Below, piece after piece: positions 37,899-64,000 of a stretch of DNA of 64,000 nt. The position numbers and the translations under genes were made by a program. The notes beneath the pieces are model-generated. The model was not told the origin of the DNA. It was given only the letters and a program-made list of their open reading frames with translations, and did no database searches. Location: NCBI GenBank assembly GCA_010015585.1, contig ML975156.1; one strand, written 5' to 3'. The DNA is from Eremomyces bilateralis CBS 781.70 (lineage: Eukaryota). The first letter of the stretch is position 1. Every line of letters starts with the position of its first letter.

Positions 37899-38789
37899 AT
37901 GCGCTTTATCTCCGCCGCCGCCGCCGTCTCTTTCTTCGTCGCTCTTACCGTCGCGCAAGCAGACTTTAGAGGGCTTCCCGACTGCTCCGTAAGCTGAACC
38001 TCCTATACTCTAGAAATCCGAGTTTAAGAGCCAAATCACTAATATTCCTTCCTTGATAGCTCTCCTGCGCCATCGACACCGTCGGCAGCTGCAGTACTTC
38101 CGATGTTAAATGCATTTGCACCAACCCAGAGCTGATTAGCGAGCTCGCGTGCTGCATCTCGGACCTCTGTAGTACGGCTGACCAACAAGGTACGCTTCTC
38201 CCGCCCCTTTTAGTAGTACTATGAATATCTGAAGTACTAATACGTCGCATCTATAGCTACTATCAGCTTCATCAGTACCATCTGCAGTAGTTACGAACTA
38301 TCCGTCCCTACCTCCGCATCTTGCCCTACGAGATCCTCTCAGATCTCATCTCTCAGTGCGACCGGGTTCCGTACTGGGATCCCGGCTCCCGTTGCGGCTC
38401 CTTCTGGTAGTCCCACCTCACAAGGCGATAGTACTACAACAACAGTCACCCCACCGGCCGGAACCAGTGCTGGCGGTAGTACCGGGCTCAGTACCGCCGT
38501 GAGCGCCGGGATAGGCGTCAGTGTGGCAGTTGGCGTGCTGCTCTCTTGTGCCATTGGATTTTTCATATTCCGGGTATTGGCAAAGAAACGGAAGGAGGAA
38601 ACCACCAGTGGGGGAACCGACGTGGAGACGAGCTATCTGGACTTGCCAGAACTTGGTGATTCCGTTCATGGCAAGAGTATATCAGAACTTAACGATCCTG
38701 TTCGTGTCGAAGAGTTAGATGGAAGTATGAGCATATTGTCCGAAATGGGAACTAATGATGAACCGAGGGCAGAACTGGAGGGAAGCTGA
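37899..38789 (+). CDS. CFEM-domain single-pass membrane protein
   Basis: Signal peptide MRFISAAAAVSFFVALTVAQ; LPDCS|LSCAIDTVGSCSTSDVKCICTNPELISELACCISDLCSTADQQ|ATISFISTIC; Ser/Thr stalk; TM GIGVSVAVGVLLSCAIGFFIF; LPEL/EELDG/AELEG tail. Two introns, reading frame intact. Confidence 0.88.
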
Positions 38790-39411
38790 CAGAATAGTAA
38801 AAGGGGACGGTGGATGGGGTCAATTTATGTTGCCTTAACTTAATACAGATTTTCAATGCACCAATCTTACCGTATAGGTAATGTGGATGATGTTAGGTTA
38901 CCCATTGCAGTGAGCCCAGTCTAGTGAGCGATGGCCTATGACAGGACGCTGCTCATGTGTCTAAAAGTCAGGGCATTACAGAGGCTCCTTCATTTAGTCA
39001 AATTCAAACGACTCCAGCCTTGGACCCGGCAGCACCGGCACAGGCAATAAGTAAGAGAATCCATGTTAGGCGGCAAGGGGCATCAGTTAACTGGACATTC
39101 AGATGGAACAGTGCAGCAAGGCTGCGCCTTCGGTAGCATTACAGATCTCGGCTACAGACCAGAAAGCAACGATATCGACTCCGCCTTATTTCAGCCTTTC
39201 TCCTTCCATCTTGGATGAAATAAATGGTACGTTGTTCTTGGGCCCTACCTAGCCTGCCTCCCATCTCCTCTTCTCAACACGCTTTTCGCATTTCCCAAGC
39301 TCCTTGCGCTCCCTTCATTGATCGATCTTAGATTGAACCGCTACTGAGCTGTCCTTTCTCTTGAGGGATTAAGTTTGCATTCCACAATAAAACGCTACAC
39401 AACCGAGGACC

Positions 39412-42400
39412 ATGGATGATTTAGATCTCCACCGAATCGACCAGATCAAAGCAGCTTTGAAAGACAAAAAGCTCGTCATTGTGACTGGGTCAGGAGTAAC
39501 ATTGAATGCCACGGCGACTCTCTCCGGCGATGCACTAGATGAGTTGTCATGGACTGGCTTGATCAATCATGGACTCGACTTTCTCGTCAAAAGCGGCAAG
39601 GTTGAGGCGGATGATGACGATTTAAGAAACGCACGAAAAAAGCTTAAAGATCCCAAGCCCAGCTCAAAACAACTGCTACGGGCAGCAGGAAGATTGAAGG
39701 AGCTTTTGGAAGACACCGACCAACTGTCAAACTGGCTGGACTATAGGTTCGGTAAGCTGTCAAAGCAAGTCAGGCATCCTGGCATCCTGAATGTTTTGAA
39801 GTCCTTCCACGAGAACGGTACTCAACTGCTCACAACAAACTACGATGATCTTCTGGAGGAAGGATATTGTAAATTAACCCGTATCGGGCGGATGGATCAT
39901 CAGCAACTCCGGAAATTCCAGAGCGGAAATTTGCGCGGCGTCGTTCACCTGCACGGCAGCTTCCATGACCCCAACGACGTTATCCTCGATGCAACGGATT
40001 ACTACAAAATCGCCTCGTCAAACGACATCCAGGAACTTCTGAGGTCGATTTGGAACACGCATACTATCTTATTCGTTGGTTGTGGATCCGGGTTGGAGGA
40101 CCCAAACTTCGGCGCGCTGTTGGATTGGGCGAAAGAAGATCAGAAAAATATCGCGGATCGGCATTTTCTCTTGGTTTCTACTGAGGATCGGTTCGACTTC
40201 CCGCGTCTGATGCGGTTGGAATTTGGCACAAGCTATGCAGACCTAGTGCCTTTCTTACAGCGACTTCTGGACGACCCGCGACGACCAGCAGCAGGGCCAG
40301 CGTCAGGTGCGCAATCCTCTTAGTGCTTTTAGATATTCCTGTGACTCCGTGTATATCCACCGAATAGCGAATGGATCTGATGTACTCCGTATGTGTTGGT
40401 ATAATGACGTGTTTTTACCGGATAGTCGATCGTTCTAAAGTCCTTGCGTCTGATGATGAGGCTCGGAGCCTCAAAAAGGAGAAAGACGGTTTGTGTCGCC
40501 CTGTCCGAACTCCAGCCTTGATTGAGAGAACTAACAGGTTACAGACTGCCTCAACTCCATCGGATTTCCCGACATCAACGCACGGAGGCTGAACATAGCC
40601 GATGCCCATCCCGATACGTGCGACTGGCTATTTCAAACCGCTGAGTTCATAGAGTGGCGGGACCGCACCGACCTACCGAACCACAATGGTGTACTCTGGA
40701 TCAAAGGCAAACCGGGCGTGGGGAAGTCAACGTTGATGAAGCATGCACTGGACCACCTTGAGAACATTTTCGCCGACCACTCGATCATATCGTATTTCTT
40801 CAACGCTCGAGGCGGAATTCTCGAGAAGTCTCCTCTCGGCATGCTCCGGTCGATCGTGTACCAGCTCGTGAACAAAGATGCTGTCCTGTATGAACATTTC
40901 CTCTCCATGTTTCGTGAGAAGAAAAGACTTCAAAGACAAGAAGTCCCTGAGTGGCAAGAGTCGGAATTGAAGGACTTTATAATGTCGGAAATAAGGCAGT
41001 GGAAACGGAAGCCACTTGTCCTTCTTCTTGACGCGCTAGATGAGTGTAACGAGCCAAATGTGCGAGAGGTAGTTAGATTTCTCGAGGACCTGAGTATTTA
41101 TGCTGTTAGAGCTGGTGGTACCTTGAGGACTTGTCTCTCGAGTCGTCACTATCCCCACGTTAGCATAAAAAAGAGCCTGGAATTCACGGTGGAGAGGATT
41201 AGGGATCACGATAAGGATATAGCGAGGTATACCCAAGAAAGGTTGATACAAATGTATGACGGTGTGGACCGGGAAGATATCCACAACGTCACCAAGGAGA
41301 TCCGAGAAAGAGCAAATGGGATTTTCTTGTGGGTCGTCCTTGTTGTTTCTCTGCTCAATATAGCCTACGACAAGGGCCGCGTTGAAGCAATGCATAAGAC
41401 ATTGGAAGAAGTACCGAACGATCTCGAGGAACTGTTCAACACGATTTTGAGCAAGGGAGATGAACATAAGGACGAGACAACGCTCATGCTGCAATGGGTG
41501 CTCTTCTCTCGGCGACCGCTGGGGCCCGAAGAGCTCTTCTTCGCCGTAACTAATTGGATCGAACCCAAAGTCAGCAGCGAGGTTATCCATCGACGCATCA
41601 CCGAGTCTTCTAGGGGCCTGATCGAAGTCCGAAAAGGGTATGCCTCGGTGCAATTCATTCACTTATCGGTCAAGGACTTCCTCCTTCGAAACCGTAGGCT
41701 ACTGACACTGGACCCGACGCTGGGACCGGAGCCTATCAGCGCTAGTCATGGTCGATTGTGGGCGTGCTGCTGGGCCTGTATTGAGCGAGTGAACACGGGG
41801 TGATAAATCAGCAGAGCGCGTGGGCGCTAAGAAATCGACCTTTCCACGTGTATCCGGTCAGGCATGTGTTCAATCATGCAGACAAGGCAGCTTCGGAAGG
41901 TATCATGAAAGAGACTATCTCACAGTGGCTACGGAAGCACAAGGACTGGTTTGAGTGGTGGAAAACATATATCAGGGCAACAGTACATATTAGCCCAACT
42001 AGCCCCGGGATGGAGCATCTAGTGACAACAGCGGACGCACAGGTAGGACTTCTTTACACGTTATCAGTTCTTGGTCTTCAACAATTGGTCCAGTACGTTC
42101 TGACTGGGAAATACGACGACGTCAACGCGCAAGGGGGGAAATACGGCACCGCGCTCCAAGCCGCGGCGCGTTTTGACCATAACGAGGTGGTCAAGCGGCT
42201 GCTAGATAGCGGCGCCAACGTTAACGCGGAAGGCGGGGTATACGGTACCGCGCTCCAAGCCGCTGCGGCTACTGGTTACCAAGAGGTGGTCGAGCAGCTG
42301 TTAGACCGCGGCGCCAACGTTAACGAGCAAGGTGGGAAATACGGTGCCGCACTCCAAGCGGCGGCGGTTTTTGGCCACGAAAAGGTGGTCGAGCAGCTGC

Positions 42401-42619
42401 TGACGCGTGGCGCTAATGTGAACCCACAAGCCGGCGGGTATTACGACACCGCTTGTTGCGGCGGCAGTTTATGGCCACGAAAAGGTAGTCGAGCAGTTAC
42501 TCGCGAGTGGTGCCAACGTTAACGCACAAGGCGGGAAGTCCGACACCGCACTCCAAGCAGCAGCGGCTAGAGGGCACACAAAAATAGTCGAACAGCTACG
42601 GGCACATGGTGGGAAATGA
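39412..42619 (+). pseudogene. NLR-like protein: SIR2_2 (putative NADase) - NACHT - ankyrin repeats; two frameshifts (pseudogene or assembly errors)
   Basis: SIR2-like motifs VTGSGVT, TTNYDDLLE, HLHGS and LFVGCGSGLEDPNF. Phase-1 introns (40307-40425, possibly split by a 21-nt mini-exon; 40489-40544) join them in frame to HPDTCDWL..WIKGKPGVGKSTL (Walker A), LLLDALDEC (Walker B), GIFLWVVL and VQFIHLSVKDFL. About 5 ankyrin repeats follow. Frameshifts at ~41800 and ~42451. Confidence 0.85.
42121..42616 (+). repeat. Five ~99-bp ankyrin-coding tandem repeats with high internal similarity
   Basis: Units start at ~42121, 42220, 42319, 42418 and 42518 with the pattern GTxAACGCxxAAGGxGGGxxxTACGGxACCGCxCTCCAAGC (VNAQGGKYGTALQAAA..GH..VVEQLL..GAN). 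Confidence 0.9.
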
Positions 42620-46086: not shown

Positions 46087-48546
46087 CTTATTGTTGTGTT
46101 ACCTCTCCCTTCTTTAGGCTTCTGCGTCTTCATCGCCTCGAGGTCCGTTGAGATGAGGATATATGACCGATGGACACACTATGGGTGCATCGTATCCCGC
46201 TATATTTTGACTAACTCCATTAATTTCTCAGATTTTTTCCTCACCCGTATGTCGATTGATGCTTTTGTCTTCTCTATTTTCGGATATGTGGTGCAGCCTT
46301 AGCTTGTACCACGTTTCCGCGTCCAGCGTCTGAGCACGCCAGGAATGTAACCGAACCACAGGTCTCACGATAGAATGTCATTACCAGCCACTCGGCACTT
46401 GCTGGACTGGAGTGCTTGTCTGTCTCTGTCGCTTCGGTTGTTCTAGACATAGTCCTCTTTGTTTTCGTGTCTGCTTGTCACCAGTCGTATGACGTAACTT
46501 GCCTTCGACAACCGTATCCATCCTTTGACGTTTGAAAGGGGAACGCCAGACAGACGCTTCTGCATTTGGGTACATTACCACATAAGAGTCGACATCACCT
46601 TCCTCCAGTATGATTCTTCAGTCAACGATCGATTCGAAGCCGAGCGACGTGGGGACCAGCGGTTTGCCTCCGGCATGTTCGCGATACCGATATATGCACG
46701 CCACTCCTTCTCGTATTTCTCCCCCAAGTCGCCAGAATACGGGGTACATAGACCAAGGATGAGTTTCGACGATCCAAAGGCGTCATACTCTCGGTATGGT
46801 TCTTCCTCTTCCCAGGAACATTCAGACGCTCTCGACTTCATGATCCCTCCTTTTGCAATGCACTTCGCTAATTATCACCTTCTCCCCTACAGGACGATGC
46901 ACGCTCACACCGTCAAACAAATTGAGCATCTCTCTCCCCACATGCCGAAATCTCCACCACCGACGTTCAAACCACACAGCCCTACCTTGACCGGACTTTC
47001 CAGAACCAAGCAGCCAGGAGTGCTGCTCTGCTCCCCTCGAGTTTCGAGCGCACGTCCTAATCTTTCCGAACCCGCGACCCTGATTAGCCCATTGGCGCTG
47101 TCTTCGCTGCTTGGGAAACCGCGGTCGACATGTCATGTTGAATCCGGACTAGGGGCGAAGACGCTGCAGCCGGGACAGGGTTCGGATATGAAGACGCCTT
47201 CCAATACCACGCCGAGCAAAGAAGAGGGGGGAGAGCGGAGTGGCGCTGAAGCAGATGAAACGAGCCAGGGAAGAAGACCTGAGAACGGTCGCCAATGTCA
47301 GGGATCGAGGATACCAGGAGGATGAGTTTGGGGAATCCGGCAATGCTGGAGTTGGAGGGGGGAAAGAAGAATCGGAATCGAAATCGTTTGGGACTGAGGT
47401 TGGGATGGTTGGGGAGGATGCGGGAACGATGATCGAGGATTGAAGACCGGCTAGAAGCTCGAATGCACGTCGGAAATTACCTTATGAGATGTGATTTAAT
47501 GAGATGTGGTGTGTATGCATGTTGAGCGAGGATATGCTGTCCGTAGCTTTTGCTATTGACCTAGCATAGCGAATGCGAAATTCATCAGATGTCCCTGATC
47601 CTCATGTCCCGTTTCAGATGCGACCATTATTAATATTCCCCGACATATTATTGAGTTTCGAGGATTGGAGTTCGGACTTATTTGCTTCTCGAGTCATTGA
47701 CACCCAATGACCGTCATTATTCCGTACCGATGCGGATGAGCGGATCTGCAGGGCCTTGAGCAAAGGCTAGGATGATTCCGTCCTGGTGCGTTGGTCACTT
47801 GGTCTGTTCCCTTAGACAACTTGACCATTTGACAAACTTGGAAGTTGGAACGGTAAGGTATTGTGACCTGGTGATTGATATTCCATCAAAGACCACTTCA
47901 ATATCGTGCCGACGGACCTTCTGCCACGTCAACCTCCATCGCAAAACACCGTTTATATGCAGTTTTGATGCAATTGAGCAGTACGATACACCACTAAAAT
48001 GGAGCCGCGACGGCCATGCACGATGACATCTTCGACGGGTACCCCTCTCGACTTGCATAAATTGTAGAGCTGGTGGCGGGCTGATGAACGGTTTATGGGT
48101 CGCTTAACCCGTCACGGTTAAGCGTCTGGTATATTCATGGATAATGGATCCTCATAATGGATTCACTACAGCAGGATCCTCCGCTAGGCCCACTTGCATC
48201 GCGTGCTTCGAACACGGACTTTGTTGGCCTGAGTCCTGGTTCATAAAGTCAATTGAACAAGATTGATAGTTACAGGAATTCCGTTACTACAGGTTCCAAT
48301 ATCCATTCAATGTCGATGCCAGACAAAGAGTATTCCAACACCAAATTTCATTGATCCCATCCCTTGCAGACAATAACAAGAGAATCTTAGGATCATCATC
48401 TTACCCTTTAAAAATCCGTTATCTATCTTGTCAGATGCGGATATCTACACCTTGAATCTAGAGTCTACTTACCTCTTACATATTCCTCGTCTCTCGTTAT
48501 ACAATTCCCCATTCTATAGATACAATCTTTTGGATACATCCTCAAC

Positions 48547-50250
48547 ATGACTACAACCCAGCTCCCCCTCTCGGAGGTCGACTCCTACGACTTCCTCATC
48601 GTCGGAGGCGGCACCGCAGGCTGCGTCATCGCATCCCGCCTCTCCGAATACCTTCCCTCGCGGCGCATCCTCGTTATCGAAGCGGGTCCCTCCGACTATA
48701 TGGACGACCGAGTCCTCCTCCTCAAAGACTGGCTCTCCCTCCTCGGCGGTGAACTCGACTACGACTACGGTACAACTGAGCAGCCCATGGGCAACTCCCA
48801 CATCCGGCACTCGCGCGCCAAGGTGCTCGGCGGCTGCTCCTCACACAACACCCTGATCTCGTTCCGGCCGTTCGAGCACGATTGCCAGCGCTGGGAGGCG
48901 GCGGGGTGCACGGGCTGGAGTTTCCGGACATTCACGCGGGTGCTGGATCGGTTGCGGAATCGGATCCAGCCGGTGCATGAGAGGCATCGGAATCAGTTGT
49001 GTTTGGACTGGGTAGAGTCGTGCTCGACGGCGATGGATATCCCGGTCATTCATGACTTCAATCGCGAGATTAGGAACGATGGGAAGTTGACCGAGGGGGT
49101 CGGGTTCTTTTCCGTAGCATATAATCCGGATGATGGGAGGCGGAGCAGCGCCAGTGTGGCATACATTCACCCTATTTTGAACGAATCGGAAAAGAGGCCG
49201 AATTTGACAGTGTTGACCAATGCGTGGGTCAACAATATTAATGTAGTGGGAGATAAAGTCACGGGTGTCAATCTCACGCTTCAGTCAGGGGAAACGCGTA
49301 CACTAAACGCCAAGTGCGAGACGATTATTTGCTCCGGTGCTGTGGACACTCCGAGATTGCTGATGCTTTCTGGAATTGGACCGGCAGATCATTTGAAAAG
49401 CGTGGGAATTCCGGTTGTGAAGGACATCCCGGGCGTTGGGGAGAACCTCCTCGATCACCCGGAAACGATCATCATCTTCGAGCTCAACAAACCTGTCCCT
49501 CCTAACCAGACGACTATGGATTCTGATGCCGGCATATTCCTACGCCGCGAGAAGCCGAATGCAGCGGGCAAAGATGGCGATGCGGCAGATATGATGATGC
49601 ACTGTTACCAGATCCCCTTCTGTCTGAACACTGCCCGGTATGTCAAACATACCCCCTATTGAAGAACAATAACAACATCACAATAGCAAGGAAAACTGAC
49701 TATTGAACCCAGACTCGGCTACCCCACCCCCATCGACGCCTTCTGCATGACTCCCAACATCCCCCGCCCGCGCTCCCGCGGCCGCATCACCCTCACCTCC
49801 TCCAACCCCACCGACAAACCCGCCCTCGACTTCCGCTACTTCACCGACCCGGAAGGCTATGATGCCGCCACCTTGGTCGCCGGCCTCCGCGCCGCCCGGC
49901 GCATCGCCGCGCAAGCCCCGTTCAAGGACTGGATCGTCTCCGAAGTGGCCCCGGGGCCGAAGGTGCAGACGGATGAGGAACTGAGCGAGTATGCGCGACG
50001 GGTGGCACATACAGTGTATCATCCGGCCGGAACGACGAAGATGGGGGATGTAGCGAAGGATGCGATGGCGGTGGTGGATCCGGAGTTGAGGGTGAGGGGG
50101 TTGAAGGGGGTGAGGGTGGCAGATGCCGGCGTCTTTCCGGAGATGCCGTCAATTAATCCAATGTTGACGGTGTTGGGGGTTGGGGAACGGGCAGCAGAGC
50201 TGATCGCGGAGAGTTGGGGATGGAAGGGGGCGGAGAAGGAGAAGTTGTAG
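48547..50250 (+). CDS. codA: Choline oxidase (GMC oxidoreductase)
   Basis: YDFLIVGGGTAG, IRHSRAKVLGGCSSHNTLISFRP, RSSASVAYIHP, GVGENLLDHPE, AHTVYHPAGT, INPMLTVL. Intron at ~49638-49712. Confidence 0.93.
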
Positions 50251-52194: not shown

Positions 52195-53690
52195 TCAGTA
52201 AACCCATCCCCACCTTGGCTGCTTCGCTGTCGCGACCTTCATCCTCTCCATCTCCCTCGACTGCGCCAGCAGCATTGAACACAGTTCCTTCGCCCTCAAT
52301 ACCTGCAAATCCTGATCCTCATACCACACCCAATTCAACCTAGTCCTCAAATCAATCCCTATGCTCTCCAAGTCGTCCCCATCCGGGCCCTCAAGCCGAT
52401 AGACATCACCCACCTCCCTACTCGTCCTCACGACCTTTTGTGACCGTGGTCGGCGCATCGCGTCATATGCCTGGAAGGCAGCTGGGAGGTCTGCCGGGCG
52501 CTTTACGTCAAGCGAGGAAAGGACCTCCGCAAGGACCAACGCGTCTTCGATGGCTTGACCGGCGCCAGCACCTTGGTGGGGTAGCGAGGCGTGGGCGGCG
52601 TCACCGATGAGGACGAGATGGTCTTTACAATAGGTAGAGAGGGGCTTGTCGGCACTATCCCAGAGAGACCAGAGGTCGACGGACTGGTCTTTCATTGCCT
52701 GGAATGGTAGCGTTAGCGAAGTTCAGGGAGTGCGAGACATGTTGTAATGCACACCTTGAGCAAGTTCTGAACATGTGGACCCCATTGTGAGAATGTCCCC
52801 TGGACGCGCTCGAATGGAACGTTTTTAATAGCCCACGCTTCACTATCCCAGCTATCCTGCTGGGTGCAGGCGACGACGTTCATCATGGCCCCTCGATCGA
52901 TTGGATAGGTGAGAATATGACCGCCTGGGCCGATATACATTTCGCTAGTAGTAGCAAGCTCCTTGCCCATGGCATCCACAGCAATATGCATGGGAACAAG
53001 TGCACGATAGCAAACCGTTCGCGTGAATGATAGGTAGTCGAGGTGAGAGTTACCTCCGAACGCGAGTTGGCGAAGGGAACTTCGAATGCCATCTGCTCCG
53101 ACAACCGCATTGGCAAAAGAGTTTGTGCCGTCCTCAAAGACGAGATTCATCAAGCCACTGGCTAGCTTCTCAACTCCGGTGAGGCGCTTATTGAAGTGAC
53201 AGAGCTCCTTCGGGATTTGCTCGACAAGTTTGTCCATGAATGGAGCCCGTCTTGAGCCGCATATACCTGTCCGAGTCTTGTCTCGTGTCTTGACTGGGGC
53301 AACGAGAGTCGGATCCCCATACCCTAGTCGAAAGTTGATCCAAGTTCTCTCGATATCATCATCTCCTTCCGTTGGATCCTCAGTTGCCAGCTCCTTGAAT
53401 GCCTTCAAGATCGTGGGATCGATCATGCCCATTGCTCTCAGGCTGTTTGGTCCGAAGCCCACTCCGAGACCAATCTCTTTAAACTCCGACGCCTGTTCAT
53501 AGACTTGAAAAGAAACCCCACGCCTGAGAAGGGCGATGGCAAGACAGAGTCCGCCTATCCCTCCGCCAACAATGGCGATTGTGAATGGTGGTTGGACAAC
53601 ATCTGCCGATCCTTGCTTCTCGATTGCTTCCCACCAACTCTCGAACTTGCCTGGAATAGGCATAAGAAGACTAACAGGACGGTTCGACAT
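52195..53690 (-). CDS. FAD-dependent monooxygenase, salicylate hydroxylase / 6-methylsalicylate decarboxylating hydroxylase (AtA/NahG)-like
   Basis: IAIVGGGIGG, EIGLGVGFGPNS, VGADGIRS, GHILTYPI, LIGDAAHASLPHQGAGAGQAIEDA, AFQAYDAMRRPRSQKVV. One intron at ~52755-52700. Confidence 0.88.
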
Positions 53691-55542
53691 GCCGTATGAG
53701 AATTATACTGGACGTAAGGAATATGCCAAGAAAACGAAACAGTGAGTTCTATGACAAGTAAACTGGAAACGATGCGTCTGCCTAACTTACGCCTACCTTC
53801 TGCATCCCTAATATTTAATAGATCCCTTCAAGCTAAGTGGGACTTCGGATACCAAGCCTTTCTGACTCTTCAAGAGTTTTGTTCCTTGTACGATAGCTGA
53901 GATCGCCTAAGACGGGCGTTCTGGTCGATGTCCGCCGCAGATCGGGTATGCATTCTGCCAATCGATCTTAAAACCTACCCAAGGACTTTCTCGATGAAGT
54001 ATTCATCACCTCGAATTCAGACGCCAACCTGAGAATACGAAGCGAATGCATGACCTCACCTGAAGACAGAGGGTTCGGAGAAGGCGATTGTACTCCCTTC
54101 TATGTAATCGGCACATCCAGATTGTCCCACGGTGACATCTGGTGCGCCCCTTCGGCATGGCATTGGCTCCCAAAATAGTGCCTACATCGGCACGCACAGT
54201 GATTGCCTCGTGGTAGAGCAGGGAAACATCCCATCGTAACTTCCATTGTGGTGTTGTGCTGTGTTAATGGTTACAGGAGTTAAGGAAAAGCGCCAGAGGT
54301 TCGCGCCGAGAGATTGGAAGGTCTAAGCGGACAGCAATTCCGTCCACCCATGTTCCGCTCCTCCTCAATAACTTCACCTCCTTCATCGCTATTCGGGCCA
54401 ACGTAGTACGTGTCGTCGATTATGTTTCGAATATTCAATATGAGGGCAAGATGCGTGTCTGACCCACAATGCCGTACGGTATCCCAGAATATCTACCATA
54501 CTGGACCGGCGGACACGGAACGGACTGTGGCTTTCACGTCATCACAGTTCTATACCCCGATCGCTGGAACAAAACCTATGGTGCTCATGCTTCTTACTCA
54601 GTCGCTATATCGCCCTCAGCTTGTTAATCGGAAGAGATTGGGAATGTTTATCCGTCCCAATGACGGCTGGCCGCAATTTGTCGCGTTTCACGGTCTGGTG
54701 TCACGTTGACAGACAGCTACGAGTCCGAAGCTGATTATGTTATGGAACCCTCGGCCGAGTCAATAATCGATATCAGCACTGTCAGGCTAATTTATCGCCA
54801 TTTTATGGAGACCGCTTATACGATGTTACTTCGAGAGCTTTACGAAAGCCATTGTTAACTTCTAGACTCGCTGCCAAGTTTCACCTGTACAACCATGACG
54901 ACAGGACCGTCCGAGATGAGTCAGGAACTCAGCACGCATAGTGAGCGTCATTCACTTGACCGCAAGAGATCAATTTCTTGTATCGCGGGCCTTCGGAAAG
55001 ATGGCTGACCGCCCGTAAGACACACTCCTCCCGCAGAGGGAGATCCAGGGCGGTCTATCAGTCTCACCGCGATGTATATTGCGACTCCGATCGACCGCTC
55101 ACCCCAAAGTGATACGTTCCACATGCCGTACAGGCTTGTCGAAGTGGGGGATATCTTCTGTTCCTAGAACTTGCAATGCTGCCTTCTGGCTGAATGGCTC
55201 TCGTCACTGCCTCCATTCGGTATAGTGACCCCGATTGGATATCTGACTCTCCCTAGCTATCGATCGCGGAGAGGCCAACAGATTACGGTGTCCGATTGTA
55301 GATGCAGGCAATATATTCCATGACGTATAGACAGACAGCTGAAATATGATCAGTTTGGAGTTACGGGATATACGATGTTAAAAGGGATAAGTATGATCAG
55401 GTCCCATCGTTCAGAGTCTGTCTCGTACTGGCCAAGCCATCCTTCTATTTCATCCTCTGTGGCCCTTTTCTTCGATAGTATAATTTACCTATTTCATTCG
55501 CATGATTACTTTTCACACTCCACGCTCCAGCCATAACACGAA
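53691..55542. promoter_or_regulatory. Divergent intergenic/promoter region shared by the monooxygenase and the PKS
   Basis: Head-to-head start codons at 53690 (-) and 55543 (+), with no credible ORF between them. Confidence 0.6.
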
Positions 55543-58500
55543 ATGGCACCTTTCTTAGATGGTAAGTGCTATCCTTTATGACTACATGTTCTCCAAGTCT
55601 AACGACAATCCAGCCCATAATTGCCCCTCTGCTGGGTCAGTATCATCATTCGATGATCTTAGCCCAACTCCTCCCGCCATAGAAATCAATGGTCTTCGGG
55701 ACACCGACGATATTGCTGTTGTCGGGATGGCATGTCGCCTTCCTGGAAAGATCAACTCCGCCGAGGACTTATGGACCGCGTTGCTGAACAAGAAGGTTGC
55801 TTCGTCAACCCTCGACCCATCAAGATGGGAGCCATATCATAGAAGAGATGCAAGGAATTCTAAGGTACTTTTACCAACAACTGTTCGATGACGGTGACGC
55901 TAATGAATTATAGATTCTGAATGAGACGACTCAGAAGGGCTATTTCCTGGATAACGTTCAAGACTTCGACGCGTCATTCTTCGGAATCTCACCCAAAGAG
56001 GCCGTCCTAATGGATCCGCAGCAGCGGATTTCTCTGGAGGTGGCATGGGAGGCGCTTGAGGACGCTGGAATTCCCCCGCAGAGTCTCGCCGGGTCGAACA
56101 CCGCCTGCTTTATGGGCGTTAACAGCGATGACTACGGGAAGCTCGTCCTGGAAGATCTCCCTGGAGTTGAAGCCTGGATGGGTATCGGAACCGCATATTG
56201 CGGTGTGCCAAACCGTATCTCCTACCTGCTGGATCTTCGTGGTCCCTCTACTGCTGTCGATGCGGCTTGCGCATCCTCCCTGGTCGCCATCCATCACGGC
56301 GCCCAATCTTTGAAATTGAGAGAGTCCGACGTTGCCATTGTAGGCGGGGTCAACGCACTGTGTGGTCCAGGTCTTACCCGGGTTTTGGACAAGGCCGGCG
56401 CCATTTCAAAAGATGGTATCTGCAAATCGTTCGACGATTCCGCTAATGGATACGGTCGCGGAGAGGGCGCTGCAATCGTGGTCCTGAAACGATACCACGA
56501 CGCGATCCGCAGCAATGACCGAATTTACGCCGTCCTCAAGGGTTCCGCTGTCGGCCAGGATGGCAAGACCAACGGGATCATGGCCCCTAATGGTGCTGCT
56601 CAGCAAGTCGTGGCACGAAAAGCTCTTGGCACTGTTGATCCGCTCAGTATTCAATACGTCGAAGCTCATGCTACCTCCACATCTGTCGGCGACCCTGTCG
56701 AGATCGGGGCCATGTCCGGAGTTTATGGTCAGGGACGTCCTGCTGATGCTCCCTGCTACGTCGGTAGTGTCAAAGCCAACGTTGGGCATCTCGAGGCTGG
56801 TGCTGGTGGTGTTGGGTTCATGAAAGCTGTCACTGCCATGTGCAAAGGTAGCATACCACCCCAAGCCAATCTCGTCACGCCGAATACGAAGATTGACTGG
56901 GACACTGCTGGTCTCAAAGTATCAGTCGAGCAGTTGGAATGGCCTCAGGTTGCTGGCAAGAGACGAGCAGCCATAAGCTCTTATGGGTATGGTGGTACTG
57001 TTTCCCATGCGGTCATCGAGGAAGGGCCAGCGATGCGCGATCGCCTCCTGGTTTCCGAGGGCTCATTTCCAACGGTGTTCCTGCTCACTGCCCCGCAAGA
57101 AAAACGAATTGCGATCGAAGCCGCTAGCCTGGCGGACTTCATCTCCGACGCCGGGACTCGGCACTCTGCATCCTCTATCGGAGCCACCCTTGCTACTCGG
57201 CGCGGTTTCCACGACTTCCGTGCCGGTCTCATCATCGAGGACAAAGAGCAACGTGATACCCTTCTCCGCTCACTTGCTACTAGAAAAGGCCATAACCAGA
57301 TCGTCTCCAACCGTGCCAATGCCAAGGATGCGACTAAAGTCGTTTGGCTCTTCTCCGGCCATGGTGCTCAATGGCCAGACATGGGCACAGAGTTGCTCGC
57401 TCACGAACCAGTCTTCCGAACCGCTGTGCAGGACCTCGACACGGTTGTGGCCGAGATTGCCGGCTTTTCGCCGGTTAAAGCTCTTCGAACCAAGGACTTC
57501 GCCTCTTCGGATCGTGTCCAGGTCCTTACCTATGTCGTACAAGTCGGTCTGACTGCTCTGCTGCAGTCCAAGGGTAGCCGAGCAGATGCGATCATTGGCC
57601 ACTCAGTTGGCGAAATAGCAGCTGCCGTGGCTGCTGGGGCGTTATCTCCGACTAAAGGTGCCGTCGTAGTCTGCAAGCGTGCTGTCCTCTATCGACGCCT
57701 CATGGGACAAGGGGCGATGGTCCTCGTCACTTTGTCCTTCGAAGAAGCTGGAAAACTTCTGAGAGACGAGAAGAATGCCTACCCGGCCATAGATGCCTCG
57801 CCAAACTCATGTGTCGTGTCTGGCACAATTGAAGCAATCGACCGCTTCTCCGCAACCTGCAAAGAGCAGGGCATCAAAGCTCTCAAAGTCAACTCCGACG
57901 TGGCTTTCCACACCCCTCTCCTTGCTTCGCTTGCCGATCCTCTTCAGAAAGAGCTGGCTGATATTGAGCCCTGCGTACCGACCATACCTCTATACTCGAC
58001 CTCCGCGGTGGACAGCCGCCAGCAAATTCCACGAGATGCCGCTTATTGGATTTACAATATGATGATGCCAGTCCAGCTCACCAACGCTGTCCGCGCTGCT
58101 GTTCAAGATGGTTACCGCCTCTTCCTCGAGGTATCTGCTCACCCCATAATCGCCAACTCAGTCAACGAGACCATCATGGATATGGACATTGAAGATGCCA
58201 ACGTCTTCCCAACCATGCTACGCAACAAGCCGGTCCGTACCACGATCCTCAAAGGACTTGTCAGCCTTTGGTCTAAGGGGGCAAACGTCCACTGGGACAA
58301 TTTTTTCAGTGGCGTCAAGTGGGCTGATGACGTCCCGAAGACTCAATGGCAGCACAAGCCGTACTATCAGGAAGTAGGAGCTGGAACCACATCTAAAGGC
58401 CTTTTCCACGACGTTACCCATCACGCCCTACTCGGTCACAAGATCAATGTTGCTGGTGGAGACCAGACAATCTTCAGCACTCAGCTCGACAACAATTCGA

Positions 58501-60989
58501 AGCCGTTCCCTGGTAGCCATCCGCTTCATGGCACTGAGATTGTTCCTGCCGCGGTTCTCTTTAATACTTTCCTCCACGCTACTAGTGCTGGGCATCTCTC
58601 TGACATCCATCTTCGAGTGCCTGTAGCCATCAGTGCACCTCGTGACCTTCAAGTCATCTTCGAACCTGGTTCCGTGAAGATCATGTCTCGTTTGGTCGGC
58701 TGCGCAGAAAAGGATGACGTGAACAACTCCTGGCTTACACACACCACTGCAACCCCAAGCGCAGAGCGTATCTTTGTCGGAGAGCAGATTGACATCACCG
58801 CGACTCAGTCCAGAATTGGCAAAGAATTGCCAACAAACTTCACGGTTGACTATCTTGAGAAGGTTGGTGTTCCGCTTATGGGCTTTCCGTGGACCGTCAC
58901 TCACCACGTCGGTACCACCTCTGAGATGCTTGCTCGAGTCGATGTCTGTCCAGATATTTCGGACGATGCTGTCTTCCCTTGGGATGCGAACTCCTGGGCC
59001 CCCGTTTTCGATGCCGCCACTTCGATCGGTTCTACCCTCTTCTTCAATGAGCCTCGTCTCCGCATGCCAGCTTTCGTTGACCGGGTTGCTATCCGTGAGG
59101 GCGCAATCGCTCCCAAGATCGCGTATATCCATGTCACCCTTCCTGATCAGGAGACAGAACTTGCTTGCGACGTCACTGTTCGCGATGAGTCCGGCAAAGC
59201 GCTTGCGAAATTTTTCTGTATGCGTTTCTCCGAGATCGAAGGCACTCCAGGGGCTATCATCAGCTCGGAGGGCCTCATCCACCAAGTTTCTTGGCTACCT
59301 GCTTCTATGCAGGACAAAGCTTTGCCGTTGGATAAGGTGATTATCCTTGGACAGGCATCTAGCACTCTGACGAGGAAGTACACAAAACATCTCACCAAAC
59401 GTGGCATCCCTTCCCAGATCCTCGCTCCGAAGCACCTCACTCCGTCGATTCTAGAGGGCAGCACTGAAGGAACTGTCGTCGTACACATTCCTCCGCCGGT
59501 AACTCCAGCCTACGACATTACTTCCAGTGCAAACATGAATTGCATTGAACTCCTGGATATCGTTCAGCTTGTCTGTGGTGTCAACAGCCCAGCCAGGATC
59601 TACACCGTCACCGAGAACATCCTGAAGGGCGAGTCGAAGACTGCTCTTGCCCAGTCCCCACTGGTCGGCTTGAGTCGTATCATCGCATCGGAGCTACCTA
59701 AAAACTGGGGCGCTCTCATCGACGTCGACTCGAACAGCTTTCCCTTCCAGGTTATCAAACATGTTATTGGGGCTGATGTTGTCAAAGTTAAAGATGCCGT
59801 CGCCCGCGTCGCACGCCTCACTGCGCTACCGAAGACTAAGTCTGACTTCGATCAAGGCCTTAAACCACGACCAGAAGGCACTTACCTCATCACTGGCGGA
59901 TTTGGCTCGCTTGGCTTAGAGGTCGCTTCCCACCTCATCGACCAAGGCGCTAAACGTATTGTTCTACTTTCCCGCCGTACCCTTCCACCGCGACGGCAAT
60001 GGTCAAACATCCAAGGCGACATGGTGCAAGTCATCGACAAGATCAAATTCTTTGAAGAGAGGGGCGCCTGCATCTATACCGTTGCGCTTGATATTTCCGC
60101 GTCTGGGTCCTCTCGTGCCCTACTTGACAAGCTTGACAACCTCAACTTACCCCCTGTTCTTGGCGTCATCCACGCTGCTGGCGTCCTGGAGGACCAATTT
60201 GTCCTCAACGCCACGCCTGAAGAGTTCAAGAAAGTCATAACGCCAAAGATTGCTGGTGCAATGAATCTGCACGAGGCTTTCCCACCGACTACCATTGACT
60301 TCTTCAATATGTTCTCCTCCTGCGGTCAACTTTTCGGCTTCCCCGGCCAAGCATCTTATGCCTCTGGCAACGCATTCCTCGACGCTCTTGCTGAGCACCG
60401 TCGCCGACTTGGAGACAACGCTGTTGCCATCCAGTGGACTAGCTGGCGCGGTGTCGGTGGTATGGGCGACAATGAGTTTGTCGAGGCCGAATTGGACAGC
60501 CGTGGTTTCACCAGCATCACCCGCACTGAGGCATTCCAAGCCTGGGACGAAATCTCCGGTCGAGACTGCGCAACTGCTACAGTTCTTCGCTCGCGTGTCC
60601 TGGACGCGGATGAGATCCTTCCAGTCCCGATCTTGGAGCACATTGCCATCCGTCGAGAGGATCCTCAAACTTCCGGGGCTGCGGAAGCTTCGTCGACGAG
60701 TGCGAATAGCAATGGCGCTCCATCGCTTCCACCGCCTGGTCCTGAGCGGAACGTGTACCTTACCACTGCAATTGCCGGCTGTGTGGCATCCGTGTTGCAA
60801 CTTGCCGGTGCAGATGAGGTCGATCCCAAGGCAGCATTGTCGGATTTGGGTATGGATTCGGTCATGACTGTTGCCTTTAGGAAGCAGCTGCAGCAAAATC
60901 TGAAGGTGAAAGTGCCACCAACTCTGGTTTGGGGACATCCTACGGTCTCCCACCTGGTTCGTTGGTTCGGGGAGCAGCTAGGCGCTTGA
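55543..60989 (+). CDS. MSAS: Partially reducing iterative type I PKS, 6-methylsalicylic acid synthase type (KS-AT-TH-KR-ACP)
   Basis: VVGMACRLPG; KS DAACASSL, EAHATST, GHLEAGAG; AT GHSVGE, VAFH; TH KPFPGSHPLHGTEIVPAA; KR LITGGFGSLG, FSSCGQLFGFPGQASYASGN; ACP LGMDSV. About 1780 aa, with no ER, MT or TE domain. Two 5' introns (~55562-55613, ~55865-55913). Confidence 0.95.
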
Positions 60990-61207
60990 CTGCGTTAAAA
61001 GTCTACTTTAATGCCCCTTTTTTCTTTTGTTCCAATATTAGGCTCATTCTTCTTTTGATATTGGGTGTGGAGTCTATGGGCTTTGATTGGATATTTTCTT
61101 TGATTTTGTTCATATCTTTCGACTTTTCTTCTAGAGTATGCCATTCTACAGCAATAACGACAAATGATCGAACAATTTATACAATTATTAACGGTTATTA
61201 CTTCAAC

Positions 61208-61245
61208 TATCTTCTACCATCAATATATCTTCTACCATCAATATA
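61208..61245. repeat. 18-bp tandem duplication downstream of the PKS
   Basis: TATCTTCTACCATCAATA occurs twice. Confidence 0.9.
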
Positions 61246-62752
61246 CTTAGCAATAATGTTTGGGATTCCGCCCAACCTAAATTTGATTCATTCAGTCAGC
61301 ATCATTTTGTTCCAGTTTCAATGGTGCCAACGCGAATATCACTACCGCCAACATGGATCGTCATCCTATACGCCCTATACCATAGCCATTAGCCGCCTTC
61401 GGGGATATTGAAAGGAAATTCGTGGTAGATTCGCGGTTCACTGGATGATGTCACTGCCAACAGCAAAGTTGCCTTACCCAAACTCGGACACACTGCGACA
61501 CTTTCGCCTGCTCAGATTCTCCCTTTTCACAGCTTTCCAACCCGTCTCAGCCCAAAATGGTTGTAGTCTTGTAGAAAAATGTCCAGTCAGGGGCCACAAA
61601 TTTACCTAAACCTACCCACCGGTGACAGAGCAAGCCCCCCTTTAGAGCGGACGAATGTTGAGCGAACTATTTGTATTTTTGTCTCAGTTACTGTATATTG
61701 TTGTCCCTGTTATCATTGATGCAATAATACCTATGCACTTAATCTTATAAACTCAATATATCATTCTTGTACGCGGCACAGGTTGCAATCGTTTGTAATG
61801 TTTAAGATATCTATCTCACATATACATTTTAACTACCTCAACAGTGCATCTACATTTCATTCCAGCCAGCAGATCATGTTAAGTCGCGGCCCGAAACAAC
61901 TTTCGCTTGACAGCTTGGCATTGTCGCGATCATTAAGTTTATTCTTTAATTCCTACCCCTATATACTCACTCCGTTGTCAGCCAAGTGCTTGGTTCCTTA
62001 GACCCACTGCAGTGTCACTACTCCTTGATGGAACCCAATGGAAAACATCTCTAAGATTTAGTGTAACCTGCGAGGACTCGATAGTTGCGTACAACATCAG
62101 AATGCCGCCAGCTAGTGCCAGATCTCCGTCACCGGACTGGCCGTCTCACTACGTTCGGGACCTTTGTACAACCGTGATCTACACAGGTCCTCGAATGAAC
62201 TCCATTTAGCAGTCCGTTTTATAGATTCATGGTACTGGTGTCCGGTCACTAGAAGCTGTACCTGTACGATAAAGCTAAATTAGCCTATGATACGCGAGAA
62301 TTGCCGACTTCACCGTCGTGGATTCCCCTGATTGGTACGAATTCAGCCCCTAGGAGTCCTTCTCATGCAATTTCTCGGAATATTGAACGTTCAAGTCGGG
62401 TGGAGGACTTGACTGTTGCATTTTAATGACGACTACAACATGCTTCAGACTATGACAGCGTCGTGGCTATTCGGAGACTTCCCACAGCTGCGGATCGCTA
62501 AAGATAACTAGCGTGGCAAGCCACCTCTCAACATCGGCTTCCAGAGATATTGGTAGAAGGGTAGATATCGTTATCGTTAATCCCAGCGCTGATCTCCGTT
62601 GCTTTGCCTCCTGATATGGTGTTGGATATTGAACAGAGATGCCCACGGTGAGTGAAGGGTCAATATAAAGACATCATGGCAGCGTGATTGCAACTTGAGT
62701 AGACATTCGCATCCTCTTTCCTTTCCATATCGTTAGCAGAACACTCGCTTTC

Positions 62753-64000
62753 ATGATGAAGGTTTCTCAGTCGATTCTGTCGTTAAGTTTGGTTCTTTTT
62801 GGCCTAGGGACAGTGGCCGCACCTCAGGGCGTTTCGATTGCCCTTGCTATTCCATCAGGTACTCCAACGCCTTCCCTCGAATTCGTGGAAGCCACGAAAG
62901 AGGAGCCGGAGACTAAGGAAGACGGAATATCATCAAATTCGAGTTCTTTGGGCAGCCCGCCGCCGGTACTGGAAATCGCTTTCTCGAAGTTGAAGAACAT
63001 TTACAGGAGATATATCGCCGATGAGCTAGTGGACAGAGGATGGTCTAAGAAATGCAATTTTGGGAAAGTGATGGTGAGAAAGGAATGGTTAGTCGACTGC
63101 AATTGAACTCAGCGAAGCGCCAGATAAAGGGGCTAACAGACCCAGGGGTACTATGTCCCAATCCCAAAGGAAAAAGTATACCGACGCCGTCAAATGTCTT
63201 TACAACAGGCCGTCGCAGTCCGACCCTGTTCTGGTTCCCGGCGCGCGCAACCGTCTCGACGATTTCGTCGCTACCCATCTCACCTTCAGCAACAACATCC
63301 ACTTCAATGGCTACGTCTTCGCCTGGCATCGGCACTTCACCTATCTCTACGATCAAGAACTCCGCAACGAATGCGGTTACAGCGGGCCGACCCCATACTG
63401 GGACTGGGTGATTGACAACGCTGACCCACGTCGGTCCACTGTATTCGACGGCAGCGAGTTCAGCATGGGCGGCAATGGAGAGACTATCCCGCATGGTAAT
63501 ACAAGTATTAATGCATTTGGAATCACATTGAGCCTCCCACCAGGCACTGGAGGTGGCTGTGTCACAGAAGGCCCGTTCACGGATCTGGTTATCAATCTAG
63601 GACTTTCGCCGAATGTGAGCGCGCCAGACCAGAACCAGACCGCTCCACCTGATGTAACATCCCATTATTTGGCACCGTTTGCGGATGCATTCAAAGGAGA
63701 CACCACTGCGGCGGTCCAAAAGAGACAGAATGACGTACCCCCGGAGATCCTGCAGGGATTGAATTATAACCCACGATGCATGACGCGCGACATAAACCTG
63801 CAATGGGCAGCGCTGGCCACAACCACAGCACTGGCCCGTATCCTGTCCTGCGGCAATGTCAGATGTCTGGAGCAGCGGATTGATGGGTGGGAGGAAGGCG
63901 CTAGTGACGAACAACAGGCGAGAGACCAACTCCACGGAGGAGGCCATTTCACGATCGGCGGTTTGAACAACGATCCGTTCGCGAGCCCGGGCGATCCGGT
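62753..64000 (+). CDS. Secreted tyrosinase / catechol oxidase (type-3 copper), 3'-partial
   Basis: Signal peptide MMKVSQSILSLSLVLFGLGTVA; VRKEW|..YTDAVKCL; CuA DDFVATH..IHFNGYVFAWHRHF..ECGYSGPTPYWDW; GGGCVTEGPF; NPRCMTRD; CuB start LHGGGHFTIGG..DPFASPGDP at the window edge. Confidence 0.92.

Follow-up and report, generated by a model that had tools for sequence, protein, structure and literature searches.

An Eremomyces bilateralis SIR2_2-NACHT gene with a frameshifted ankyrin remnant, probably a recently inactivated fungal NLR-type gene

The window analysed here, a stretch of 64,000 nucleotides (nt) of contig ML975156.1 (assembly GCA_010015585.1), comes from the dothideomycete Eremomyces bilateralis CBS 781.70 and contains, at 39391-42619 on its plus strand, a SIR2-NACHT-ankyrin locus of the fungal NOD-like receptor (NLR) type. 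A preliminary description of this locus had presented it as one gene divided over three open reading frame (ORF) pieces, in which a first exon of 303 amino acids (aa) was spliced in frame to a NACHT domain and ankyrin repeats. We found that four stop-to-stop ORF pieces, not three, spanned the locus:

39412 (ATG) to 40323, plus strand: ORF piece 1, SIR2_2, 303 aa
40535-41803, plus strand: ORF piece 2, NPHP3_N/NACHT-like
41785-42522, plus strand: ORF piece 3, ankyrin repeats (Ank_2, E 2.6e-22)
42422-42619, plus strand: ORF piece 4, ankyrin repeats (Ank, E 1e-12)

The length of 303 aa held for the first ORF counted from its ATG, and the spliced exon was 298 codons plus 1 nt. Similarly, the in-frame splice was retained as far as the NACHT domain, through a 238-nt intron that matches the public protein of this locus, but the NACHT domain was not in frame with the ankyrin repeats. 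The locus was therefore described by the following features:

39412-40306, plus strand: exon 1 (298 codons plus 1 nt), SIR2_2 domain of the SIRim type, PF13289
40307-40544, plus strand: intron 1, 238 nt, donor GTGCGC, acceptor TACAG with CTAAC 9 nt ahead of it
40545-41803, plus strand: exon 2, NACHT/NPHP3_N NTPase module, PF24883, terminal TGA at 41801-41803
41785-41800, plus strand: frame break 1 (+2 to +1), overlap of both open frames, GGGG at 41797-41800
41833-42441, plus strand: former linker/helical region, ankyrin repeats 1-3 and start of repeat 4, open in frame +1 downstream of the stop at 41803
42441-42452, plus strand: frame break 2 (+1 to +2) in ankyrin repeat 4, located by tblastn frames and repeat register
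42452-42619, plus strand: remainder of ankyrin repeat 4 plus repeat 5, frame +2 open, TGA at 42617-42619

Left unspliced, the SIR2 ORF ran into an in-frame stop (TAG, 40321-40323). Nine GT..AG pairs, 40307-40544 among them, preserved the reading frame of the ATG through to the NACHT ORF, and this pair was chosen as the one that exactly reproduced P0001, a public protein named 'hypothetical protein P152DRAFT_481758 [Eremomyces bilateralis CBS 781.70]' and annotated with Pfam SIR2_2 and NPHP3_N. The coding sequence 39412-40306 joined to 40545-41803 was translated into 717 aa, letter-for-letter identical to P0001. The alignment of SIR2 homologues reached 40308, and that of NACHT homologues started at 40541-40547 and opened with a conserved DCL.S..FP segment right at the acceptor of intron 1. 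Moreover, the first Met of the NACHT ORF came only after the P-loop, and the NACHT ORF therefore had no usable start of its own. Contigs derived from three sequencing runs were compared with the window. Runs X1 and X2 were DNA from a single sample, from which the assembly itself may derive, and run X3, whose kind was guessed as RNA, came from a second study; the X3 contigs left 40361-40546 and 41485-41618 uncovered. It was hardly credible that SIR2 and NACHT were two separate neighbouring genes with the former ending at the TAG. In favour of two genes, stand-alone SIR2_2 proteins of ~300 aa were common, the exons were joined by no contig, and one X3 contig (39381-40360) read through the donor and past the TAG at 40321-40323. 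Against this, no Met preceded the P-loop of the NACHT ORF, the conserved N-terminal segment of the NACHT homologues began right at the acceptor, intron 1 kept the frame, with GT as donor, CTAAC as branch site and AG as acceptor, the public model was fused, and SIR2_2 and a NACHT-type domain were found in one protein in 29 among the 120 long relatives listed. By the gene model, SIR2 and NACHT are fused through the 238-nt in-frame intron, with the junction neither confirmed nor refuted by the X3 reads.

Exon 1 matched Pfam SIR2_2 (PF13289) with an E value of 5.8e-21 (75.5 bits; cut-off 24.5). This was the sole family, and no canonical sirtuin family appeared at E <= 0.01 in the Pfam scan. The motifs GSGVT (26-30), TTNYD (141-145), HLHGS and FVGCG started at residues 26, 141, 179 and 221 respectively, with Asn143 lying in TTNYD and His181 in HLHG (179-182). 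In the alignment with 74 relatives, T141, T142, N143, D145, H179, H181 and G182 were invariant. The exon held two cysteines only (C153 and C224), and zinc-binding CxxC pairs were therefore absent. A sequence search of the PDB returned FAM118B with E 9.3e-17 (residues 16-285), DSR2 with 3.8e-7, ThsA with 1.1e-5 and 1.4e-4, and KomC with 7e-3; none of the 13 matches was a canonical sirtuin. An alignment-based AlphaFold2 model of the SIR2 domain reached a pLDDT (predicted value of the local distance difference test) of 92.9 and a predicted template modelling (pTM) score of 0.90. When this model was searched with Foldseek, FAM118B ranked first (E 5e-11, template modelling (TM) score 0.73), followed by DSR2 chains (TM 0.62-0.68) and then ThsA and KomC, with no canonical sirtuin in the rows to rank 50. 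Among PADLOC models, the SIR2 part matched ThsA (9.2e-13), LmuA (2.1e-10) and Dsr1 (2.2e-10), and NCBIfam gave no family for either the SIR2 part or the NACHT part. By phmmer, bacterial and metagenomic SIR2-NB-ARC-TPR proteins scored up to 131 bits (30-35% identity) versus 65 bits for FAM118B, and by this score the domain would be nearer to bacterial SIR2 domains fused to signal transduction ATPases with numerous domains (STAND) than to FAM118B. A two-copy complex prediction of the SIR2 domain scored 0.30 against a mark of 0.32 and was not used as evidence either way.

Statements credited below to three texts (10.1101/2024.09.18.613514, 10.1101/2025.07.08.663546 and PMC12700824) refer to the available parts of these texts. 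Asn143 and His181 aligned on the FAM118B positions corresponding to N163 and H206, which are the residues mutated to alanine in the SIRim preprint (10.1101/2024.09.18.613514). The definitions of the GxGxS/T and TTNxD motifs were taken from 10.1101/2025.07.08.663546. The SIR2 domain of the window gene is of the noncanonical SIR2_2/SIRim type, with a Rossmann fold and a helical subdomain but without the zinc module, an organisation described for SIR2_2 in PMC12700824, whose section 7 equates SIRim with the SIR2_2 subfamily.

The NACHT ORF (40535-41803) matched NPHP3_N with E 1.7e-33, and its matches to NACHT, NB-ARC and AAA were sub-threshold. In the 717-aa product, Walker A (GKPGVGKST) occupied residues 353-361, Walker B (LLLDALDEC) residues 458-466, and a winged-helix motif (FIHLSVKDFL) residues 669-678. 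Several claims of the preliminary description were thus borne out, including the four SIR2_2 motifs, the lack of CxxC pairs, the NACHT domain with its Walker motifs, the conserved catalytic Asn and His with kinship to ThsA, DSR and STAND-fused SIR2 proteins (by motifs, PADLOC and fold matches), and the separation from canonical deacetylases. The profiles it had named for checking, PF13289, NPHP3_N and Ank, were all matched (Ank_2 at 2.6e-22), and its reading as a fungal NLR-type gene with a noncanonical SIR2_2 N-terminus agreed with the Pfam domains, motifs and fold.

The nearest relatives of the NACHT module (120 matches listed) were 47-63% identical to it, and compared with the NACHT-ankyrin NLRs of other fungi the identity was 50-63% over 85-100% of the length. 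The NACHT parts of other SIR2-NLRs were 22-28% identical to that of the window gene. None of the 120 nearest NACHT relatives listed carried PF13289; the nearest listed carried PF06985, PF01048, PF01734, PF17106 or PF17107 instead of SIR2_2. These N-terminal families go by the names HET, PNP_UDP_1, patatin, SesA and NACHT_sigma. Known N-terminal modules of fungal NLRs include pore-forming, amyloid, HET/TIR-like, PNP_UDP, patatin and similar domains. Since the closest NACHT relatives bear other N-terminal domains, sequence comparison points to domain shuffling, a process on record for fungal NLRs, as the origin of the SIR2_2 and NACHT combination.

The SIR2-NACHT-ankyrin gene was not intact in this genome, because its ankyrin sensor had been put out of frame by two frameshifts. 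Eight close NACHT-ankyrin homologues (P0121, P0122, P0125, P0126, P0127, P0131, P0132 and P0133, whose NACHT part was 57-63% identical) were aligned to the window by tblastn. All eight followed frame +2 up to 41788-41797 and then frame +1 from 41833-41842, and all eight switched frame at both breaks. The gap on the homologue side at break 1 was only ~14 residues (in P0122, 14 residues faced 12 codons), so that break 1 was assigned to a frameshift and not to an intron, and the indel was placed in 41785-41800 because both frames are open there alone. Over 41833-42441, tblastn of P0121-P0133 gave 37-51% identity in frame +1. Tandem Repeats Finder reported a period of 99 nt with 4.5 copies at 42119-42568. 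The unit of ankyrin repeat 4 (42394-42493) was 100 nt against the 99-nt period, and the register slipped by one base after repeat 4; judged from this register, a 1-nt insertion within ankyrin repeat 4 accounts for break 2. The TGA at 42617-42619 was the probable original stop. At both breaks, bridging contigs from X1, X2 and X3 showed 0 differences and 0 gaps relative to the window.

It was very unlikely that the locus encoded an intact, working SIR2-NACHT-ankyrin receptor, with the frame breaks being sequence errors or bypassed by splicing or ribosomal frameshifting. Both downstream pieces were open and ended at a plausible natural stop (42617-42619), one X3 contig spanned the whole ankyrin region from 41619 to beyond 43000, and at break 1 the frames could in formal terms be reconnected by any of 41 GT..AG intervals of 40-200 nt, such as 41800-41861 (62 nt). 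However, contigs from three runs of two studies matched the window at both breaks, the repeat that holds break 2 left no space for an intron, and the public gene model also ended at 41803. An intron at break 1 was rejected, as homologues aligned inside every short candidate interval (from 41833 on and up to 41797), and the X3 contig was collinear with the genome and unspliced at the breaks.

The 62-nt interval 41800-41861 contained a CTAAG motif and a pyrimidine stretch, and its removal would restore the frame at break 1. Splicing it out would cost ~12 residues conserved in the homologues.

In CBS 781.70 the ORF ends at TGA 41801-41803, as in the public model, with the five ankyrin repeats left behind as a remnant out of frame; given this stop and the frame shifts, the encoded product is a sensor-less SIR2-NACHT protein of 717 aa. 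A tripartite STAND receptor has C-terminal ANK, WD or TPR repeats on the same polypeptide, and here the ankyrin repeats were found behind the stop at 41801-41803, in two other frames. The ancestor evidently carried them on the same polypeptide. Most likely the locus is a recently inactivated, decaying allele, for which we infer a loss of function, and the frameshifted allele may still be transcribed. Avs5 bears on the state of the product, as every deletion tested in its C-terminal repeats abolished immunity (10.1101/2025.07.08.663546). Because the Avs5 repeat deletions abolish activity, the sensor-less 717-aa product would, by analogy, more likely be inert than autoactive.

The X3 contig at 41619-43140, which covers the ankyrin remnant and the 3' flank, had a word depth of 65.9, compared with 12.7 for the SIR2 exon and 6.4 for the NACHT exon, and word depth of X3 contigs is not usable for ranking expression. 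The 3' excess (~10x the NACHT exon and ~5x the SIR2 exon) could reflect 3' bias, an internal start or an overlapping transcript.

Two related accounts would keep the locus functional. It was unlikely that the locus is alive in the sense that a transcribed, sensor-less 717-aa protein, or an intact allele elsewhere, acts as an NAD+-hydrolysing switch for death or arrest, the functional and frameshifted states being a standing polymorphism as at immune or allorecognition loci; if true, this would be the first fungal NLR shown to execute via NAD+ depletion. Slightly less likely still was that the sensor-less 717-aa SIR2-NACHT is itself functional, either as an NAD-processing enzyme, constitutive or under some other regulation, or as a null or alternative allele kept as an immune or allorecognition polymorphism. 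The ORF was intact across the whole NOD module including the winged-helix motif (669-678), X3 contigs covered both exons, and SIR2_2-only proteins made up 40 of the 70 closest cluster representatives, all of which fits a functional product. On the other hand, each C-terminal repeat deletion tested in Avs5 lost activity (10.1101/2025.07.08.663546), the two independent indels, both in one 3' region, suggest relaxed constraint, and the 717-aa form is known from one strain alone.

Relatives of the SIR2 domain were collected from a representative library of 1.84 billion proteins, which gave 2521 at E <= 1e-3, 1479 at E <= 1e-10 and 70 at E <= 1e-30. Architectures were counted over the 70 closest cluster representatives, the query's own protein included. 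Besides the 40 with SIR2_2 only, 14 carried a NACHT or NB-ARC domain (NACHT-type in 11 and NB-ARC in 3), 5 had ankyrin repeats without an NTPase, and TPR, NHL and SH3 were found in 2 each; PNP_UDP_1, BTRD1, WD40 and a UvrD helicase occurred once each, and 1 had no Pfam match at 1e-5. Among the 120 long relatives listed, NB-ARC was found in 14, and NACHT together with ankyrin repeats in 5 (P0008, P0009, P0015, P0016 and P0018). E. bilateralis had at least five further SIR2_2 paralogues. One of them (P0002, 1188 aa) was a SIR2-NACHT-WD40 protein, and the other four (P0241, P0243, P0268 and P0355) were short SIR2_2 proteins of 320-413 aa, some of which could be incomplete gene models or additional NLRs in decay. 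P0241 shares its 997,570-nt contig with the window gene but falls outside the window. No second SIR2 paralogue was found in the window, where tblastn of P0241, P0243, P0268, P0355 and P0002 matched this locus only.

A quick maximum-likelihood tree was built from 84 SIR2 domains chosen by the author from 360 proteins (LG+G4), with the Shimodaira-Hasegawa-like approximate likelihood ratio test (SH-aLRT) as the only support measure and with unnamed metagenome rows labelled by the author's judgement. One branch (support 100) split 54 rows, consisting of named fungal and short metagenome sequences, from 30 rows consisting of named bacterial and STAND-type metagenome sequences. The window SIR2 domain and P0241 grouped together (97), and one clade (SH-aLRT 100) comprised five of the six E. 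bilateralis copies, whose C-terminal parts differed; architectures were interleaved. The tree contains no FAM118 sequence, and the relation between the fungal clade and FAM118 is drawn from the PDB scores and the preprint's statement only. Fungal-type SIR2_2 was also seen fused to PNP_UDP_1, HMG boxes (Pseudogymnoascus, Bisporella), SH3 and NHL repeats (relatives P0004-P0006 and P0384; P0303, P0304, P0315, P0328 and P0335; P0370 and P0385; P0368 and P0394). The SIR2_2-PNP_UDP_1 proteins would combine two putative effector domains in one protein.

The SIR2-NACHT-ankyrin architecture was compared with known systems. The closest counterparts are the eukaryotic clade A 'sirims' with NLR-like architecture of 10.1101/2024.09.18.613514 (section 8), which share with the window gene an N-terminal SIRim/SIR2_2, a central NACHT and C-terminal ankyrin repeats in a fungus; the window copy differs in having its repeats out of frame. 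FAM118B and FAM118A (PDB 9r3e, 9r0p) share the Asn of TTN(Y/F)D, the His of HxHG and the lack of a zinc module, but the window SIR2 domain is only 22-25% identical to FAM118B, and FAM118 proteins are stand-alone, filament-forming and vertebrate (PMC12700824), whereas the window domain is fused to a NACHT NTPase. Avs5 (AVAST type 5), a bacterial SIR2-STAND protein, has an N-terminal SIR2 on a STAND NTPase, C-terminal repeats, and both GxGxS/T and TTNxD motifs (10.1101/2025.07.08.663546). The SIR2 domains of bacterial and metagenomic SIR2-NB-ARC-TPR proteins show 30-35% identity to the window domain, but a branch with SH-aLRT 100 separates these STAND rows from the fungal rows; the window NTPase differs from that of Avs5 in being a fungal NPHP3_N-type NACHT, and approximately half of Avs5 proteins have NG where the window protein has HG (10.1101/2025.07.08.663546). 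No Avs model was found among the six PADLOC matches of the SIR2 part, and the NACHT part matched only mad8 (E 0.0094). ThsA, DSR1/DSR2, KomC and LmuA share the SIR2_2 fold and the catalytic motifs (Foldseek E 1e-8 to 3e-7), with only 14-21% identity to the window domain; these effectors have other partner domains (SLOG; the C-terminal sensor of DSR2) and other triggers (a signalling nucleotide; phage tail tube). Fungal NACHT-ankyrin NLRs share the NACHT module and the same ankyrin repeat type, but SIR2_2 was absent among the 120 listed.

Together, we favour as the likely account a fungal NLR (STAND)-type gene, built by shuffling from SIR2_2/SIRim, NACHT and five ankyrin repeats, which carries two frameshifts and was probably recently inactivated, and whose intact members would hydrolyse NAD+. 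In intact members, the ankyrin repeats would bind a ligand, the NACHT module would oligomerise, and the clustered SIR2 domains would then hydrolyse NAD+, with Asn143 and His181 as the would-be catalytic residues and cell death or growth arrest as the presumed outcome. The NADase activity, the activation by oligomerisation and the immune or allorecognition role are proposed by analogy, and killing by NAD+ depletion on oligomerisation, as put forward in the preliminary description, would follow the example of Avs5, ThsA and DSR2. Avs5 hydrolyses NAD+ once activated, and the Asn of its TTNxD motif is required (10.1101/2025.07.08.663546, sections 8 and 10).

Several points weigh against the favoured account. 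Regarding the gene structure, the junction of exons 1 and 2 was present in none of the read-derived contigs of X1, X2 and X3, and the X3 contig at 39381-40360 ran unspliced 54 nt beyond the donor. Regarding inactivation, both out-of-frame ankyrin pieces were still stop-free, so that decay, if it is decay, must be very recent, and a functional reading of the frame-broken locus may apply; the 41 intervals that formally rejoin the frames at break 1 count in the same direction, and as X1 and X2 may be the assembly's own data, independent support for the frameshifts comes mainly from X3. Regarding the activity, no enzymatic or genetic experiment on any fungal member was found in the literature searched. 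FAM118B alone is reported to be a very weak NAD processor and a filament former, not a killer (PMC12700824), and therefore NAD+ depletion is not assured and a weaker, signalling-type role is a live rival.

Under that rival, the SIR2 domain would not kill through depletion of NAD+ and would instead be a weak or regulated NAD-processing or signalling enzyme, as proposed for FAM118B, or would transfer ADP-ribose to a target. We regard it as rather unlikely, though the strongest of the alternatives. FAM118B was the best solved relative by both sequence and fold, FAM118B or FAM118A alone is reported to be very weakly active, with activity depending on the FAM118A/B pair (PMC12700824), and the discussion of the SIRim preprint contrasts strong bacterial NADases with the weaker human one (10.1101/2024.09.18.613514). 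However, phmmer favoured bacterial STAND-fused SIR2 (131 bits, 31-34% identity) over FAM118B (65 bits), and the N-terminal placement on a STAND NTPase copies that of the NAD+-hydrolysing Avs5 (10.1101/2025.07.08.663546).

The proposal that the locus represents an undescribed system was not upheld, as the architecture is in print and the protein is already public. Fungal SIRim-NACHT/NB-ARC-ankyrin/TPR proteins were described as NLR-like in a 2024 preprint (10.1101/2024.09.18.613514); in its available part, these fungal NLR-like sirims are covered by one descriptive paragraph and a figure, without an experiment on a fungal protein. The window gene is thus a further, damaged member of a kind with a described SIR2-NACHT-ankyrin architecture. 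In the fungal-NLR literature, SIR2 or sirtuin had 0 occurrences in the main text of PMC9815663, PMC12258605, PMC12881547, PMC10197012 and PMC4986451, and full-text literature searches combining SIR2 with fungal NLR terms, or using PF13289, found no fungal-NLR paper. A SIR2_2 effector on a NACHT receptor ties fungal NLRs both to human FAM118B and to bacterial defence by NAD+ depletion (Avs5, Thoeris, DSR). The SIR2_2 family is not rare, which makes the class well suited to a first functional test in fungi, for which an intact homologue would be a better subject than the frameshifted window copy.

A scan of the surroundings of the gene covered 36 ORFs out of 109 that reached at least 130 aa. The neighbours included RICTOR, uricase, copper amine oxidase, aldo-keto reductase, tubulin-tyrosine ligase, a metallo-beta-lactamase (MBL)-fold protein, and a polyketide synthase with tyrosinase and oxidoreductases. 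These neighbours belong to housekeeping and secondary metabolism, and the 36 ORFs scanned included no further NLR or HET gene. A secondary-metabolite cluster likely occupies 52198-63998. Oxidoreductase and cluster features were as follows:

48520-49659: GMC oxidoreductase
52198-53702, minus strand: FAD/NAD-binding oxidoreductase pieces
55914-60986: reducing-type polyketide synthase ORF with KS-AT-DH-KR-ACP domains
63093-63998: tyrosinase, cut by the window end

The ORF directly upstream of the SIR2 exon (38241-38789, plus strand) was Ser/Thr/Pro-rich with one hydrophobic stretch and had no Pfam family at 1e-5, a composition that suggests a small membrane protein.

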